Assembly (NCBI GenBank): GCA_949290645.1
Contig: CASESG010000001.1
Span: forward strand, 5,104 to 69,103
DNA from: an uncultured Bacillota bacterium
GTDB lineage: Bacteria; Bacillota_I; Bacilli_A; RFN20; CAG-288
Direction of reading: 5' to 3'
Length of the DNA: 64,000 nucleotides
Numbering within the stretch: the first letter of the stretch is position 1; every line of letters begins with the position of its first letter. Shown piece by piece: positions 43,659 to 51,200 of the stretch. A program made the position numbers and the translations under genes. Under the pieces are notes generated by a model that saw only the letters and a program-made list of their open reading frames with translations, did no database searches and was not told the origin of the DNA.

Positions 43659-43734
43659 GGATGCTTAGCTCAGCTGGAAGAGCATCGCCTTTACACGGCG
43701 GAGGTCAGGAGTTCGAGACTCTTAGCATCCACCA
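43659..43734 (+). tRNA. tRNA-Val (anticodon TAC)
   Basis: Cloverleaf folded by hand: acceptor GGATGCT/AGCATCC, anticodon loop TTTACAC, T-loop GGAGTTCGAGACTCT, encoded CCA. Confidence 0.9.
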
Positions 43735-43761
43735 CTGAAAGAAGCGCAGAAATCGATTTGT

Positions 43762-43845
43762 GGGCGAGTAGCGAAGTGGCCAAACGCGGCAGACTGTAAA
43801 TCTGTTCCTTCGGGTTCGGTGGTTCGAATCCACCCCCGCCCACCA
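43762..43845 (+). tRNA. tRNA-Tyr (anticodon GTA), long variable arm
   Basis: The loop CAGACTGTAAATCTG carries GTA. T-arm GGTGGTTCGAATCCACC, encoded CCA. One A-C mismatch in the acceptor stem. Confidence 0.85.
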
Positions 43846-43890
43846 TCCCTTCGGTAGCAACGCATCTGCGTTCTATATCCGTGCCTTACT

Positions 43891-43964
43891 TGGGGTATAG
43901 CCAAGGGGTAAGGCAACAGACTTTGACTCTGTCAGCGGTGGTTCGAATCCACCTACCCCAGCCA
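43891..43964 (+). tRNA. tRNA-Gln (anticodon TTG)
   Basis: Acceptor TGGGGTA/TACCCCA, anticodon arm CAGACTTTGACTCTG, T-arm GGTGGTTCGAATCCACC, CCA. Confidence 0.9.
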
Positions 43965-43992
43965 TCCTTCTAGCCCGAGGAAGCCCCGAACC

Positions 43993-44068
43993 GTCTCGTT
44001 AGCTCAGTTGGTAGAGCACGTGACTTTTAATCACGGGGCCATGGGTTCGAGTCCCATACGAGACACCA
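43993..44068 (+). tRNA. tRNA-Lys (anticodon TTT)
   Basis: Acceptor GTCTCGT/ACGAGAC, anticodon arm GTGACTTTTAATCAC, T-arm ATGGGTTCGAGTCCCAT, CCA. Confidence 0.9.
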
Positions 44069-44080
44069 CTCCTCTGTTCC

Positions 44081-44168
44081 GCCCAGGTGGCGAAACTGGT
44101 AGACGCACAGGACTTAAAATCCTGCGGGCTTATCACCCATACCGGTCCGATTCCGGTCCTGGGCACCA
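44081..44168 (+). tRNA. tRNA-Leu (anticodon TAA), long variable arm
   Basis: Acceptor GCCCAGG/CCTGGGC, anticodon arm AGGACTTAAAATCCT, CCA. Confidence 0.9.
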
Positions 44169-44702
44169 AGAGATCATTCCTGTCTGTCATCCCCAAAGGG
44201 GGTGGCAGACATTTTTTTGTTTCGGAAAGGTCAGGAAGCTCTCCTCGACGGATGGAAAGCTTCGATTCAGAATCGGTGAGGAAGAAACGTAACCACAAAA
44301 CTTCAATTCATTTTACTTTTGCGGTTTTGGGGATGTGATGCAACACGGAAGGCTTCCTTATTGTCAGCGCCGTTCCTGAATTTGGAGGAGCTGTTGAGGC
44401 AAAATCCACAGGGATACTTTCTGCGGTTGCGCTTCTGTATTTATTAAGGAAAGAAGACCTTATATTCTCGTGTCAAGAAGAAGGAAAAAGGGGAGAGGTG
44501 CCGATTTCCCTTTCTGAAAGCGATTTTGACACAACGGGATCTTCGTTTTTGACAGGTGGGGAAAAGCGGGGATTTGATGTTTGATTTCTGTGTTCATTTT
44601 CTAATGAAAACACTTTGAATTTTCAATAATGTTTAGTTTTAATGAACAGAATTACGATTACTTGATAAATTTCGGATAAAATATCGGACTTTTTTTAATT
44701 TC

Positions 44703-44731
44703 TTGACAAAAGCGGGGGGGGGTGTTAGGTT
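44703..44731 (+). promoter_or_regulatory. Candidate promoter of the GH2/surface-protein operon with a homopolymer in the spacer
   Basis: TTGACA (44703-44708), a 17-nt spacer AAAGCGGGGGGGGGTGT, then extended -10 TGtTAGGTT (44723-44731). ATG at 44771 is preceded by AAAGGA. Confidence 0.45.
44714..44722. repeat. G9 homopolymeric tract
   Basis: Nine consecutive G residues, counted directly in the sequence, inside the promoter spacer. Confidence 0.95.
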
Positions 44732-44770
44732 TTGATTTGAAAGGGCTTACCTTTCAGAAAGGATCACTAC

Positions 44771-47704
44771 ATGAGACGGAAAAAGAATTTGCGCTTGGTA
44801 CTCATGCTCTCCTCCCTGGTCAGCATCGGTGCCTTCGCCCCACTCCAATCCGAATCTTCCGACTCCACTCAGGCAACCTCTCCGATCGTGCTTCCCAATG
44901 ACAAGAAGACGAATGGAGAGAACATCCTGCCGGAAGGCGTCCGCGAGGTCGATTTCAACTACGGATGGACCTTCAAGAAGGGAAACCTGCTCGCCGACAA
45001 GCCTTACGAAGCCTATTACGACGACTCCAACTGGAAGAAAGTCAATCTTCCGTATGACTGGTCCATCTATGAGGACTTCTCGGCGGAAATCTCCTCGGAA
45101 ATCGGACATCTCCCGGGCGGAACGGGCTGGTATCGAAAGGTCTTCACCGTTCCTGCCTCGATGAAGGGAAAGAGGATCACCATCAACTTCGATGGAGTCT
45201 ACATGGAATCCACGGTCTATGTCAACGGACAGAAGGTCGGATTCTATCCTTCGGGCTATGTCCCCTTCCACTATGACATCACCGATTACATCCACTTTGG
45301 TGAAGAGAACGTCATCGCAGTCTCGGCCACGAACCTGGATGGCTTCAACCAGGCCACCTCTCGTTGGTATTCGGGCTCTGGCATCTACCGTGACGTCTTC
45401 CTGACGATTCAGGACTCTCTCCATGTCGGACAGGACGGAACCTCGATCACCTATCCAGACCTCAAGGTCAACCACATGGCCAATCCGGACAACTTCACGG
45501 CCAATGCCGCAATCACCAACACCATCGTCAACGATACGGACGATCAGGCCAAGTTCAAGGTCCGCACGACTCTTCTGGATTACGAGACTTTGGCTCCGAT
45601 CGAGAACGGAGAGCCGGTCACTTCCGAGGAAGTCACCCTCGAGAAGGGAAAGTCCATCGATGTCCAGAACAACATCACGGTCAAGAACCCCAAGCTCTGG
45701 TCGATTGAGTCTCCCAATCTCTACTATGTCCAGACCGAGCTTCTCGACGAGGAAGGAAAGGTCATCGAGACCAAGAAGGACCGGATCGGGTTCCGCTATT
45801 TTGACTGGTACACGATGAACGATGCCGAGGCCGGCGCTCCGGCGGAAGGCTTCTTCCTCAACAACAAGTTCTTGAAGTTCAACGGCGTCTGCATGCACCA
45901 CGATCAGGGAGCCCTGGGTGCCGAGGCCAACTACAACGCCATCCGCCGTCAGATGGAGACGATGAAGGAGATGGGTGTCAACGCCATCCGCATTACGCAC
46001 AACGCCGCCGACTCCGCTCTGCTCCAGGCCTGCGACGAACTGGGGCTTCTCGTCATCGAGGAGAGCTTCGACTCCTGGTATTCCGCCAAGGCCAGCCAGG
46101 ACTTCCATCGCTTCTTCGAGCAGGTCGCAACCCATCCGGAAGCCAACGGAACGGAGACCTGGCCGGAATTCGACCTCCATCACATGATCCAGAAGCATCG
46201 CAACTTCCCTTCCATCATCATGTGGTCGGTCGGTAACGAGATCTGGGACACGCACCATCTGGCGACGGACGCGGCAAAGTCCAAGGCCCTCCAGACCATG
46301 AGGAACCTGGTCCAGTGGTGCCATGAAGCCGACATCGACGGCGATGACGACTCCCGTGCCTCGGGACAGAGAAGGTTTGTCACCATCGGTCAGAACCAGT
46401 GGGACGAATCCTGCATGCCCTTGATGCGGGAACTCGATGCGGTCGGATACAACTACTGGTGGAACTTCCAGGGACAGGACGTCAAGGACTTCCGCTTCTA
46501 TGGATCGGAGACATCCTCGGCCGTCAAGTCCAGAGGCTTCTATTCTGACAGGAACGACATGAGCTCTGTCGTCCTCCAGATGGAAGGCGTCGGCGATCAG
46601 CTCTCCTCCTTCGACAACTCTTCCGTCTCCTGGGGTGCGACCGCTTCTGTCGCCCTGAAGAAGATGCAGGACAGCTACAGCGACGGCACGGCCAACCTCA
46701 TCCATGCCGGCGAATTCGTCTGGACGGGCTTCGACTACGGCGGAGAGCCGACTCCCTGGAACCAAGTCCAGGGCCGCAATCCGCACAACTCCTTCTTCGG
46801 CATCGTCGACACGGCGGGCTTTGCCAAGGATGACTACTTCCTCTATCAGTCCCAGTGGCTGCCTAGGGATGAGACCTTCGTCCACATCGTCGGTCATTAC
46901 AACTGGGAGAACCCAGTTTTGGCCAACCAGATGCTCGACGAGAACGGAAACCTTCCGGTCAAGGTCTACTCCAACGCCGATGCGGTCGAGCTCTTCCTCC
47001 AGAAGCCGGGACAGGAACCGAAGTCTCTGGGAAAGAAATCCTTCACCCCCAAGTCGAAGGAAAACCACACCATCACCGAGACCTACTATCGCTCGAGCGA
47101 AGACAGCAACAGCCTCAACCTCGAGTGGAGCGTCGACTGGGAATACGAAGTCGGAACCAAGCTCTTCGCCAAGGCCTATGACGCCGATGGAGAGGAGATC
47201 ACCCTCGACGAGTACGATCCCTTGGTCCGCAACGCTCCGCAGAGCGAGATCGTCACGGCCGGAGAACCGGCGAGTGTCGTCCTGACTCCGGAGAAGACGA
47301 CCATGACCTCCGACGGCTATGACCTCGTCTACATCGATGCCCAGATCGTCGACAAGGACGGCAATCCCTGCCCCAACGCCATGAACAACATCAACTTCCA
47401 GTTCATCGGCGACACCGAAGCGGCGGAGATCGTCGGTGTCGACAACGGAAATGCGGACTCTTGGGAACGCTTCAAGGACTACGACGGAGAATGGAGACGT
47501 TCCGCCTTCAACGGAAAGGCGCTTGTCATCGTCCGTTCCAAGGGCAAGGATGGTCTCTTCTCCATCCAGGCGACTTCCACCGGACTCAAGGGCTCCACGG
47601 TCAGCTTCGTTTCCCAAGGGGAAAAGGAAGAGACTTCCGAGCAGCTTCTCGACGTCACCGTCGACCCGAAGAGAATCCGTCCCCTCGACGTTGTGAAGAA
47701 GTGA
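44771..47704 (+). CDS. Secreted GH2-family glycoside hydrolase (beta-galactosidase/beta-glucuronidase-like)
   Basis: Signal peptide MRRKKNLRLVLMLSSLVSIGAFA. GH2 hallmarks YRKVF, NGVCMHHDQGALG, NAIRITHN and MWSVGNEI. C-terminal Ig-like extensions. Confidence 0.85.
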   Translation: MRRKKNLRLVLMLSSLVSIGAFAPLQSESSDSTQATSPIVLPNDKKTNGENILPEGVREVDFNYGWTFKKGNLLADKPYEAYYDDSNWKKVNLPYDWSIYEDFSAEISSEIGHLPGGTGWYRKVFTVPASMKGKRITINFDGVYMESTVYVNGQKVGFYPSGYVPFHYDITDYIHFGEENVIAVSATNLDGFNQATSRWYSGSGIYRDVFLTIQDSLHVGQDGTSITYPDLKVNHMANPDNFTANAAITNTIVNDTDDQAKFKVRTTLLDYETLAPIENGEPVTSEEVTLEKGKSIDVQNNITVKNPKLWSIESPNLYYVQTELLDEEGKVIETKKDRIGFRYFDWYTMNDAEAGAPAEGFFLNNKFLKFNGVCMHHDQGALGAEANYNAIRRQMETMKEMGVNAIRITHNAADSALLQACDELGLLVIEESFDSWYSAKASQDFHRFFEQVATHPEANGTETWPEFDLHHMIQKHRNFPSIIMWSVGNEIWDTHHLATDAAKSKALQTMRNLVQWCHEADIDGDDDSRASGQRRFVTIGQNQWDESCMPLMRELDAVGYNYWWNFQGQDVKDFRFYGSETSSAVKSRGFYSDRNDMSSVVLQMEGVGDQLSSFDNSSVSWGATASVALKKMQDSYSDGTANLIHAGEFVWTGFDYGGEPTPWNQVQGRNPHNSFFGIVDTAGFAKDDYFLYQSQWLPRDETFVHIVGHYNWENPVLANQMLDENGNLPVKVYSNADAVELFLQKPGQEPKSLGKKSFTPKSKENHTITETYYRSSEDSNSLNLEWSVDWEYEVGTKLFAKAYDADGEEITLDEYDPLVRNAPQSEIVTAGEPASVVLTPEKTTMTSDGYDLVYIDAQIVDKDGNPCPNAMNNINFQFIGDTEAAEIVGVDNGNADSWERFKDYDGEWRRSAFNGKALVIVRSKGKDGLFSIQATSTGLKGSTVSFVSQGEKEETSEQLLDVTVDPKRIRPLDVVKK

Positions 47705-47720: not shown

Positions 47721-50700
47721 ATGAAACAGAAAAAAGCGATTCGTCTTTCCCTGCTCTTCCTGACGGGCCTGACTTCCGTCGGAATGGCCATGGGAAGTTC
47801 CAATGCGACTCCAGTCGTCGACGGAATGGTCAAGACGGCCAAGCGCGCCGCCTCGACCTTCCTGGGCTTGGCTCCCCTCGATCCGATCACGGTCCAGGCC
47901 CTCTCTGCCCCTAGCGAACTGACTTCCTACCTCCCGACCACGGTCCTGGGATACTATTCCGATGGCTCTTCCCAGACCTTCACCATCACTTGGGACAGCG
48001 CGACCGAGGAACAGGTGAAGACGGCCGGAACCTTCGCCCTCAACGGCAAGGCGACCTATGGCGAGGAGACGCATGACGTCACCATCGCCGTCACTGTCGT
48101 CGTCATCGAGCACATCGTCACGCCGCGCGTCCTCGTCTACATCGAGGATCCGGACAACTACGAGCTTCCCAGAGAGACCCTTGTCATCTACACGGATGGC
48201 TCGACGGCGATGAAGAAGCTCGACTTCACGGGTGTCGAAAAGCCGACCGTCACCGAGCTTGGCGAGAAGAAGGTCACCGGAAAGCTCGAGACAGGAGAGA
48301 GCGTCGAATGCATCATCGAAGGCGTCGGTGCCGATGCCCTGACCAACGTCAACGCCGCCAAGGGCGCGACGGGCAAATTTGACTTCGTCAACTCCTACGA
48401 CAATCCGGATTCGATGTACAACGGCAACCACACCGAGAAGGGCATCTCCAACTGGGAGACGAGAGACCAGTCGACTCCGGAAACTTCGGGACCACAGGAT
48501 GGCTTCTATCACGTCACTGGTTCGATGACCTCGGCGGTCGAGGCCAGCTCGATCATCGTCTACTGGTGGACGGGCGAAACCAACTGCGAGCTTCCTTCCG
48601 CCTATCAGCTGGAGATCGACGACGGCTCCGGCACGTACCAGAAAGTCGACATCGAGGCCGTGGTCGGGGAATACGATGCCCAGAATTACATCACTCCCTA
48701 TCACTTCAACTTCGGCACGAAGAGAATGGTCAAGGCCTGGCGTCTTGGCTGGAAGAATCCGGGACTTGGCAAGTGGTGCAACATCTCCGAGATCGAGGTC
48801 ATGCACCCGACGGGCGAGCTGACGCTCTCCAGCGAGGCCGATTTGACGGACGTCAAGGTCAACGGTGTCTCGATCGAGAACTTCGACGGCTTCCAGAACA
48901 GCCATACCACCAAGGTCGCCTACGATGCCGAGGATGTCGAGATCGTCGCCACGGCGAGCAGCTCGGCCGCGATGGTCTACGTCCAGGAAGGCGAGATCGG
49001 CGGGGAACCCTACCGCATCCACGTCCTGAGCCAGGACTTCTCCCAGCAGAGGACGTACGAAATCTTTGTCCGTCGCGAGAACGCCCCCATCAAGGAGGTC
49101 ACGGTTTCTTTCGGCGGCGATGTCGAGAACTTCCGTCCGGGCGATTCGCTTCCGGTCACGGTCACAGGAACCACGGCCACAGGCGAGACCATCACTTCGG
49201 CCAATGCCGACGACTTCCGCTATGTTGTCGAGAACCTCTCCGGCTCGGCCGAGATGAGGGGAAGCAACCTGGTCGCCCTGACCTCCGGCTATGTCGAGCT
49301 CTCCGCCCAGATGACCTATGGCGGTGCCACGGTGACTTCCAAAGAGATCCGCGTCGCCATCCAGAGAGAGGACACCACCCTCCGTGCCCTCTATGTCGAG
49401 AAGCAGGAAATCACGATCGATCCTCTGGTCGGATACGAGCTTCCGACCACGGTGAAGGTCCACTACGAGGGCGATATCGTCCGCGAGCAGAGCGTCGCGT
49501 GGAATCCGATTCCGGCGAAATATCTCGAATCGGCCAACACCTTCACCATCCAGGGCTATGTCGTCGGAACGACCATGATCGCCGAGCTGGAAGTCTCCGT
49601 CATCACCACCGATGACGTTCGCGACCACATGACGGCGACCTTCTACGGACAGGTCGGCACCGTTCCTACGCTTCCTTCCTCCTTCCCGGCGACCCAGAAG
49701 AGCGACGGAACCTACACCAACGAAGGCGTCACCTGGGACAGCGGCCGCTTCGCGGAAGAATTCCCTGCCCTTGAGGTCGGCCAGTCGGTCCAGGCCTGGT
49801 ACTACTTCAACTCCCAGTCCAACAACTGGAAGTACGTCAACTACGTCGCGACGGAAGGCGAAGCCTCGATGGACTACGCCGACCGCCAGAATGGATACAT
49901 GATTCCGGCTTCCTTCACCTCCACGGCCTCGACGGGCGAAAGCTCGATGGCCTTCTCCGATGCCAAGGGCACGACCTGGTCGCCTGCGGCAGAAGACGAG
50001 AATCCCTACTTCGGCTTCATCTTCGGAAATGCCGGAAACATCCAGACGAAGACCGTCTCGGACATCTCCCTCCACTTCAGCTCTGAGGCCCTTCCTGCGG
50101 GACTGACGGTCCAGTACTTCACAGGAAGCTTGGCCAATGCCGACCTCGACACGACCAACTTCTCCGGCGTCGCCACGGGCGAGACCTGGGAGAGCAGCGC
50201 CCTGACCAACGAGGCTAACTGGAAGAACGTCACCGCACAGAGCGGAACGATTGCCGAGACGACGACGCTCAGCTTCGAGAAGGTCGAGACTTCCGCCATT
50301 CGCGTCCTCATCGACAAGGGAGAAGTTGCCGCAAACGAAATCGGCATCGATGACCTGACGGCGACCGAGAAGGTCTATTCCGTCTCTTCCGAGGCTCCGG
50401 AACTTTCCGCGATCAACGTCACGACCAGCACGGAGGAAGCCGGTTCCCGAGCGACGACCAACATCTATGAGGCGGGCAAGGACGAGTACACCATCGAATA
50501 TGATGGAGCGGGTACCCCGACCATCGAGGCCGTCCTGGCTGACGGAGAGCGAGGCATGATCTTGACTCTTCCGGAACAGGGCAACAACAAGGTCCTCATC
50601 ACCCTGATCTCTGAGGACGGAAAAGGCTCCCGCATCATCACAGTCAACATCAAGCGTCCGGCCAGCGAGATCAAGAGCATCTCCTCCATCCAGGCTCTCG

Positions 50701-51152
50701 AGAAGGTCACGGTCGACTCCGCCAAGGATGCGGCTGCCCTGAACCTTCCCACGAAGGTGACGGTCAACTATTCGGACGGAACGACGGGCGAAGTGGACGT
50801 TTCCTTCGACACCTCGAGTTTCGTCGGAAAGAAAGGAACCTACCTCTTCAACGGAACCCTCGAGCTTCCTCTGGAAGTCATGAACGATCTCAACCTCATC
50901 CCTCAGATCCAGGTCGAGGTCCTCAACGACTACGTCGACACGACCACTCCGGAAGATCCCGACGACAAGCCCAACGATCCGGGAGATGACAACAACCCGA
51001 GCGATCCGGGCGACAACGAGCCGACGGCTCCCGAGGACAAGGGCGGACTTCAGGGCGGCGACATTGCGGCCATCATCCTGGGCGTCCTGCTCGGCCTGAC
51101 CATCGTCGGTGGCCTCGTCTACTACTTCCTCGTCCTTCGCAAGAAGAAGTAA
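47721..51152 (+). CDS. Large cell-surface protein (1143 aa) with Ig-like/Big_4-type and carbohydrate-binding-like modules and a C-terminal TM anchor
   Basis: Signal peptide. Repeated LPTTV..YSDGS....V.W modules. Pro/Asp-rich stalk, then hydrophobic IAAIILGVLLGLTIVGGLVYYFLVLRKKK. Confidence 0.7.
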   Translation: MKQKKAIRLSLLFLTGLTSVGMAMGSSNATPVVDGMVKTAKRAASTFLGLAPLDPITVQALSAPSELTSYLPTTVLGYYSDGSSQTFTITWDSATEEQVKTAGTFALNGKATYGEETHDVTIAVTVVVIEHIVTPRVLVYIEDPDNYELPRETLVIYTDGSTAMKKLDFTGVEKPTVTELGEKKVTGKLETGESVECIIEGVGADALTNVNAAKGATGKFDFVNSYDNPDSMYNGNHTEKGISNWETRDQSTPETSGPQDGFYHVTGSMTSAVEASSIIVYWWTGETNCELPSAYQLEIDDGSGTYQKVDIEAVVGEYDAQNYITPYHFNFGTKRMVKAWRLGWKNPGLGKWCNISEIEVMHPTGELTLSSEADLTDVKVNGVSIENFDGFQNSHTTKVAYDAEDVEIVATASSSAAMVYVQEGEIGGEPYRIHVLSQDFSQQRTYEIFVRRENAPIKEVTVSFGGDVENFRPGDSLPVTVTGTTATGETITSANADDFRYVVENLSGSAEMRGSNLVALTSGYVELSAQMTYGGATVTSKEIRVAIQREDTTLRALYVEKQEITIDPLVGYELPTTVKVHYEGDIVREQSVAWNPIPAKYLESANTFTIQGYVVGTTMIAELEVSVITTDDVRDHMTATFYGQVGTVPTLPSSFPATQKSDGTYTNEGVTWDSGRFAEEFPALEVGQSVQAWYYFNSQSNNWKYVNYVATEGEASMDYADRQNGYMIPASFTSTASTGESSMAFSDAKGTTWSPAAEDENPYFGFIFGNAGNIQTKTVSDISLHFSSEALPAGLTVQYFTGSLANADLDTTNFSGVATGETWESSALTNEANWKNVTAQSGTIAETTTLSFEKVETSAIRVLIDKGEVAANEIGIDDLTATEKVYSVSSEAPELSAINVTTSTEEAGSRATTNIYEAGKDEYTIEYDGAGTPTIEAVLADGERGMILTLPEQGNNKVLITLISEDGKGSRIITVNIKRPASEIKSISSIQALEKVTVDSAKDAAALNLPTKVTVNYSDGTTGEVDVSFDTSSFVGKKGTYLFNGTLELPLEVMNDLNLIPQIQVEVLNDYVDTTTPEDPDDKPNDPGDDNNPSDPGDNEPTAPEDKGGLQGGDIAAIILGVLLGLTIVGGLVYYFLVLRKKK

Positions 51153-51173: not shown

Positions 51174-51200
51174 GGGGCTGGCCTTCGGCCGGCCCCTTTT
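51174..51200 (+). terminator. Intrinsic terminator after the surface-protein gene
   Basis: GGGGCTGGCC-ttcg-GCCGGCCCC hairpin (near-perfect) followed by TTTT. Confidence 0.7.

Follow-up and report, generated by a model that had tools for sequence, protein, structure and literature searches.

Slipped-strand promoter switches are textbook knowledge in Neisseria, Haemophilus, Mycoplasma and Treponema, and reports of them in uncultured gut commensals are, to our knowledge, scarce. In Mycoplasma hyorhinis, the vlp genes reportedly have a poly-A run in the promoter spacer, as Citti and Wise are said to have described in 1995. In Treponema pallidum, a poly-G run upstream of the transcription start site (TSS) of the subfamily II tpr genes reportedly modulates promoter activity, a finding attributed to Giacani et al. 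in 2007. In the meningococcus, the porA promoter carries a poly-G run between the -35 and -10 hexamers, and compared with 11 G the level is 2-fold lower with 10 G and 13-fold lower with 9 G (PMC3639595). Among these systems, porA is the closest precedent for the promoter described here, and among wall-less relatives M. hyorhinis vlp comes closest. A literature search for slipped-strand promoter switches in the lineage studied here found no report.

The window, which is the whole stretch of DNA analysed (64,000 nt), belongs to a metagenome-assembled genome of an uncultured Bacillota bacterium, with 1.23 Mb in 9 contigs, 53% GC and 85% completeness. One promoter in the window has nine consecutive G residues (G9) in its spacer. 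We estimate a probability of roughly 0.68 that this run is a slipped-strand contingency locus in a sigma-A-type promoter (TTGACA, 17 nt, TGnTAGGTT) driving a split beta-galactosidase operon. The earlier note on this DNA had proposed that expression of the operon is phase- or amplitude-variable, and the sequence comparisons with other strains, with a sister species and across the lineage lend support to this proposal. A PBP transpeptidase domain was found in 0 of 45 genomes of the genus, which fits a wall-less gut lineage. A MutS domain is present in 44 of the same 45 genomes, and this rules out absent mismatch repair, as in mycoplasmas, as the cause of run instability. A scan of JGI metagenomes for the GH2 promoter gave no match, and the only assemblies in which the species turned up were from ENA and Logan.

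Anatomy of the promoter and its operon

All features given here lie on the forward strand. The -35 hexamer of the promoter is TTGACA (44703-44708), which is the same in all 14 assemblies compared and in the sister species. The spacer, AAAGC-G9-TGT, is 17 nt long in this genome (44709-44725) and consists of AAAGC (44709-44713), the G9 homopolymer (44714-44722) and TGT (44723-44725), which separates the run from the -10 hexamer. The homopolymer is the hypermutable element, with 9, 8 or 7 G in 10 haplotypes. The extended -10, TGt-TAGGTT (44723-44731), is composed of TG at 44723-44724 and TAGGTT at 44726-44731, and it reads TGtTAGTTT in the sister species. The ATG of the GH2 ORF is at 44771, and the gap between the -10 and the ATG is 39 nt. 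On re-reading, the positions that the earlier note had assigned to the -35, the spacer, G9, the -10 and the GH2 start were all exact. A homopolymer longer than the threshold of at least about 7 nt is thus located between recognisable -35 and -10 hexamers. TAGGTT agrees with TATAAT at only three of six positions (T1, A2 and T6), and for this reason a consensus promoter scan of the window did not have the G9 promoter in its list. The promoter was called from its phylogenetic footprint in place of the consensus scan.

Downstream of the -10, the predicted mRNA has a 5'-terminal stem-loop, UUUGAAAGG-GCUUA-CCUUUCAGA (44736-44758; -12.1 kcal/mol, z = -3.4). The hairpin begins 5-8 nt past the -10 in the window, in the sister species and in a paralogous GH2 promoter; in the last of these, on contig 4, a GAAAGG... 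hairpin is equally far from its TATAAA. Because the conserved hairpin starts where a TSS is expected, we infer that the TSS is near 44739-44740. The stem-loop at 44736-44758 may stabilise the 5' end of the mRNA. A Shine-Dalgarno sequence, AGAAAGGA (44756-44763), is located 7 nt before the ATG and is conserved in the sister species.

Upstream of the promoter, the box CTTGATAAA (44661-44669) lies 41 nt from the -35 region, and CTTGACAAA is found at equal distance in the sister species. Together with 44702-44710 (CTTGACAAA), this box forms a CTTGAYAAA direct repeat with copies 41 nt apart, the downstream copy of which holds the -35. The repeat could be the site of a regulator or be left over from a duplication of the promoter. 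Two extra TTGACA boxes (44527-44532 and 44548-44553) are located 150-175 nt upstream, and either could be an alternative promoter. After the box at 44548-44553 come 18 nt rich in G, ggtggggaaaagcgggga, and next TTTGAT; together these could form an upstream promoter whose G-rich spacer is of the same style.

The first gene of the operon (44771-47704) encodes a predicted secreted GH2 beta-galactosidase of 977 aa with an N-terminal signal peptide. A Pfam search found the GH2 N-terminal, sandwich and TIM-barrel domains, DUF4982 and the C5 domain, every one of them above the cut-off. The best PDB match is the beta-galactosidase 4cu6 (E = 3e-182, residues 58-953), which we take to be BgaA of Streptococcus pneumoniae. 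The protein therefore has both the full domain set and the close similarity to a characterised enzyme that define a BgaA-like GH2. The earlier description of the first gene product as a secreted GH2 glycosidase is borne out by these domains and by the signal peptide that was found. The second gene (47721-51152) begins 16 nt past the GH2 stop and encodes a surface protein of 1143 aa, in which a signal peptide, three Big_4 domains and a BgaA-like CBM are combined with a C-terminal transmembrane anchor that has RKKK after it. Its stretch from residue 350 to 640 matches the C-terminal portion of 8q2h, a beta-galactosidase of 1737 aa. The earlier note had called this protein giant; at 1143 aa it is large, not giant.

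An intrinsic terminator (44181-44211), which is strong, follows an upstream cluster of five tRNAs (43659-44165), and from its sequence it is predicted to shield the operon against transcription entering from upstream. Non-coding DNA of about 490 nt comes after this terminator. The two-gene operon is closed by a strong intrinsic terminator at 51174-51196, with a 10-bp stem of 9 GC pairs followed by a T run. According to domain lists, GH2 and Big_4/CBM modules are fused in one protein of 1300-1600 aa in many Bacillota. Because the same modules are fused there, the operon looks like a split BgaA-like surface beta-galactosidase, composed of a catalytic gene and a Big_4/CBM anchored partner. The operon shares the GH2 catalytic region, Big_4, the BgaA-like CBM and surface display with BgaA of S. 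pneumoniae. Unlike BgaA, it is encoded by two genes, and the anchor is a C-terminal transmembrane helix on the second protein without LPXTG. Anchoring by a transmembrane helix fits a genus without PBPs.

Variation of the run among strains and in the sister species

The earlier note had suggested a comparison of strains, and in near-identical strains the run proved to be G9, G8 or G7. The strain set was obtained from the 90%-identity cluster of the GH2 protein by way of the encoding contigs, which gave 14 assemblies and 11 haplotypes. The haplotypes are about 99% identical, with 102 SNP columns over 4.16 kb. Run lengths were read from metagenome consensus assemblies. Five haplotypes have G9 (the window strain, also represented by L001 and L002, and L026, L029, L030 and L056), four have G8 (L024, L025, L031, which is also represented by L032, and L033) and one has G7 (L028). 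In the remaining haplotype, L027, which is the most divergent strain, the run is interrupted (GGGGTGAG). The spacer is accordingly 17 nt in the G9 allele, 16 nt in G8, 15 nt in G7 and 16 nt in the interrupted allele. A Logan contig, L057 (P0131), was left out of the run counts; it begins 35 nt before the ATG, and the run is missing from it. The -35, the TG, the -10, the 5' UTR including the hairpin and the Shine-Dalgarno sequence are invariant across all 14 assemblies. The lengths seen in strains were 7-9 only, with no clearly 'off' length among them. At a second poly-G promoter of the genome (C3:36298), all 3 strains retrieved have G8.

A maximum-likelihood tree of the locus was built with the run masked. 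Three sister pairs contain one G8 and one G9 haplotype each, namely L033/L056 (support 98), L025/L030 (100) and L024/L026 (86). The G8/G9 split inside three supported sister pairs indicates that slippage recurred. The tree needs at least 6 run-length changes among the 11 haplotypes, and shuffled labels need as many, so that in relation to SNPs run length is saturated. The 4.16-kb alignment has just three further indel columns, and the G run is thus polymorphic among close strains far above the background indel rate. This between-strain hypermutability was observed directly in the alignment.

Differences between G7, G8 and G9 could also be artefacts that arose in sequencing or assembly at a homopolymer that is hard to resolve. 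Several platforms are prone to errors in poly-G, and the Logan contig L057 ends just downstream of the expected position of the run. Against this, ENA and Logan assemblies that are identical over the locus agree on the length in two cases (L001/L002, G9; L031/L032, G8); by their consecutive accession numbers, the two members of each pair are probably from the same sample. Differing assemblers (MEGAHIT-style k87, scaffolded) give 8 or 9, and two control T7 runs in the same 4.16 kb are constant, save one that is T6 in the divergent L027. We consider an artefact very improbable, with a small residual risk.

The sister-species locus (L003, on the same contig as G002) encodes a GH2 protein that is 85% identical, but the greater part of the intergenic DNA is not conserved. 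The blocks still shared are the CTTGAYAAA box, the -35, the spacer's 3' end plus TGtTAG, the hairpin and the Shine-Dalgarno sequence, and the core promoter is the best-conserved intergenic block. The spacer in the sister species is also 17 nt long, and it is G-rich and interrupted (GGTGGTGGGG; AATCGGTGGTGGGGTGT), without a homopolymer. The orthologous GH2 promoters in G004 and G013, which are other species of the genus, have no run. The interrupted spacer of the sister species and the promoters of G004 and G013 without a run rule out an ancient run at the GH2 gene. Elsewhere, an orthologous pair of promoters has G8 in one and G10 in the other with compensating flanks, so that both spacers are 18 nt, and the orthologous promoters of one gene family have G8, G8 and G11.

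Poly-G promoters in the genome, the genus and the order

G or C runs of 5, 6, 7, 8, 9 and 10 nt occur 612, 39, 5, 7, 3 and 1 times in the 1.23-Mb genome. The 11 runs of at least 8 nt compare with 0-2 in five 5th-order Markov simulations and with 0.5 by decay extrapolation. An exact TTGACA is present 3-11 nt upstream in 4 of the 11 (binomial P = 4e-9). When the 11 runs were read one by one, five were assigned to promoter spacers, one abuts a -35, three are coding and two were left unassigned. The spacer runs are the G9 of the window promoter, a C8 in TTGCCA-17-TACAAT before a membrane protein, a G9 in TTGACA-19-TAGGAT before a BspA-LRR lipoprotein, a G8 in TTGACA-16-TAAAAA before a lipoprotein and a G8 in TTGACA-18-TATAAA before a secreted protein.

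The run that abuts a -35 (TTGTTT) belongs to the paralogous 1391-aa GH2. In this GH2+Big_4 gene, the G8 (C4:98376-98383, L022) is located directly 5' of the -35 in TTGTTT-16-TATAAA. For the same paralogue (L012), the run of the sister species is a G9 in the equivalent position. The paralogue is thus a second glycosidase gene with a poly-G run at its promoter, and the geometry is unlike that of the window promoter.

The coding runs are a G10 in a signal peptide, which is out of frame in this genome, a G8 early in another secreted protein, and a G8 in an Eco57I-type methylase beside a ResIII helicase. The last of these (C3:90517-90524; L019, about 1518-1525) encodes Gly-Gly in an Eco57I-family N6-adenine methylase, and the methylase gene is directly upstream of the gene for the 993-aa ResIII helicase. 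The two genes are a candidate phase-variable restriction-modification system (phasevarion). The sole very long A/T runs of the genome, A13 (C1:161768-161780) and T14 (C8:2780-2793), lie in DNA that looks non-coding and are candidates for further contingency tracts.

Across the genus, the pattern TTGACA-N3-11-G8+ was found at 34 sites in 20 of 45 species, and the reversed-pattern control in the same 45 species gave none. At 18 of 20 inspected sites the run is directly followed by a TAnnnT -10, and spacer lengths run from 14 to 19 nt, most often 17. The genes downstream of the inspected sites encode lipoproteins, type-IV-pilin-like proteins (GFTLVELL) and proteins with a GFSTWY/GFSVYFF leader motif. 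Two type-IV-pilin-like genes of G048 (L037 and L038; N-terminal KGFTLVELLVVIAILAILAA) have poly-G-spacer promoters with G11 and G9, and they are candidates for phase-variable pilins in a wall-less lineage. In the order, the stricter pattern TTGACA-N7-10-G8-TA was found at 46 sites, in 33 of 151 genomes and 14 of 47 genera, and the control for this pattern gave 0 in the 151 genomes. The promoter design therefore recurs well beyond the window.

The runs are strongly biased to one strand. Poly-G is on the non-template strand at 46 sites in the 151 genomes of the order, compared with 0 for poly-C, and at 34 sites in the 45 genomes of the genus, compared with 3 for poly-C. In addition, a C precedes the run in 16 of the 20 inspected sites. 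Neither the strand bias nor the preceding C is predicted by a pure spacer-length model. One idea is that a non-template G run beside the -10 keeps a G at -14, where the extended -10 is contacted, at any length. Alternatively, the bias could come from common descent of a promoter module or from strand-biased slippage. The preference for G over C may hint at a way of building promoters that withstand slippage and make use of it.

These features could also mean that the G run matters chiefly for its sequence, as a promoter element that supplies, for example, G at -14/-16 for sigma region 3 or the site of a regulator, and that the length changes are incidental. The bias of poly-G over poly-C in the order and the genus would be expected of such an element, as would the usual position of the run against the -10 and the C before it. 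However, an element of this kind does not need 8-11 identical bases, TGT parts the run from the -10 in the GH2 promoter, the sister species works with GGTGGTGGGG, and run length differs among orthologous promoters. We regard this explanation as distinctly doubtful, and it is not exclusive of a slippage switch, with which it is compatible.

A further explanation is that the run is hypermutable but neutral, either because the extended -10 is insensitive to spacers of 15-17 nt or because the TSS belongs to another promoter (44527 or 44548). The -10 is weak and has the TG extension, the spacer of L027 is 16 nt long with no homopolymer in it, G8 occurs about as often as G9, and TTGACA boxes do exist upstream; all of these are consistent with neutrality. 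On the other hand, the core promoter is the best-conserved intergenic block and its 17-nt spacing is kept in the sister species, and the 5' hairpin is equally far from the -10 in two paralogous promoters. Moreover, long G runs are otherwise strongly depleted in the genome and are concentrated in promoter spacers order-wide, which argues for selection. Neutrality of the run is therefore rather unlikely in our judgement, and we favour the slipped-strand contingency locus.

The recurrence of the design also allows a broader and more tentative proposal, to which we give somewhat less than even odds. The order may possess a 'rheostat promoter' module, TTGACA-N(4-11)-C-G(8-11)-TAnnnT, in which the non-template G run abuts the -10. 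In such a module, the sigma contacts at G(-14)/R(-16) would be kept at any length, and slippage would alter the -35/-10 distance alone. The module would have been installed repeatedly before unrelated surface, pilin-like, lipoprotein and glycan-foraging genes. If true, this would amount to a combinatorial phasome that covers nutrient acquisition, as with the BgaA-like beta-galactosidase, and not antigens alone.

Proposed graded expression and comparison with known systems

Promoters follow a spacing rule of 17 +/- 1 nt, and with an extended -10 a promoter can withstand changes of its spacer. By this rule, and by analogy with porA, run length should affect transcription of the operon. Slippage would shift the spacer between 17, 16 and 15 nt (G9, G8 and G7) and would thereby grade transcription, and transcription is presumably strongest with G9, which gives the 17 nt also found in the sister species. 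The activity of G8 may come close to that of G9, given the non-homopolymer 16-nt spacer of L027. Amplitude control is more likely than a strict on/off switch, because the TG extension should buffer the spacing, G8 and G9 are equally common and L027 has a stable 16-nt spacer. Sub-lineages would then express glycan-cleaving, surface-exposed proteins at graded levels, as with a volume control. Reversibility of the run within a clone and its adaptive value are likewise presumed here.

The promoter is one of a lineage-wide set of poly-G promoters and poly-G coding tracts, a probable phasome that would regulate surface proteins, lipoproteins, pilin-like proteins, glycosidases and a restriction-modification methylase. 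There are about 11 such runs in a genome of 1.2 Mb, and roughly one in three genera of the order has the promoter design. In the operon studied here, the candidate switch would govern an enzyme that cleaves host or diet glycans, together with the partner for its surface display. Should the switch prove functional, run length would have to be handled as a heritable expression state in strain-level metagenomic and metatranscriptomic studies of these bacteria.

The resemblance to porA of N. meningitidis is close. Both have a poly-G run (9-11 in porA) in the sigma-70-type spacer of a surface-protein gene, strains differ in its length, and mismatch repair is present in both lineages. Unlike the wall-less gut Bacillota that carries the GH2 promoter, the host of porA is a Gram-negative pathogen of an unrelated phylum, and the target there is a porin, whereas here it is a glycan-degrading enzyme operon predicted from its sequence. 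In the GH2 promoter, 9 G give the 17-nt spacing, and in contrast to porA the design recurs at many promoters across the order.

M. hyorhinis is a wall-less relative in the Bacillota, and its vlp genes have the homopolymer just upstream of the -10 and at several surface (lipo)protein genes, as in the lineage studied here. The vlp genes switch independently and produce combinatorial surface mosaics, to which the poly-G promoters of this lineage may be likened. The vlp runs are poly-A and belong to one paralogous family in one locus, whereas the runs described here are poly-G and precede unrelated, scattered genes. Mycoplasmas are without MutS and MutL, whereas the lineage of the GH2 operon has MutS. 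The tpr genes of T. pallidum are similar in that variable poly-G runs are found in the promoters of several genes for surface proteins, in a bacterium that is host-associated and uncultivable, and there, too, variation was first inferred from sequence heterogeneity. T. pallidum is a spirochaete, and the position of its run relative to the hexamers differs from that in the GH2 promoter. The kind of switch is therefore known; what is new is this member of it, its recurrence throughout a lineage and its link to a glycan-foraging enzyme.
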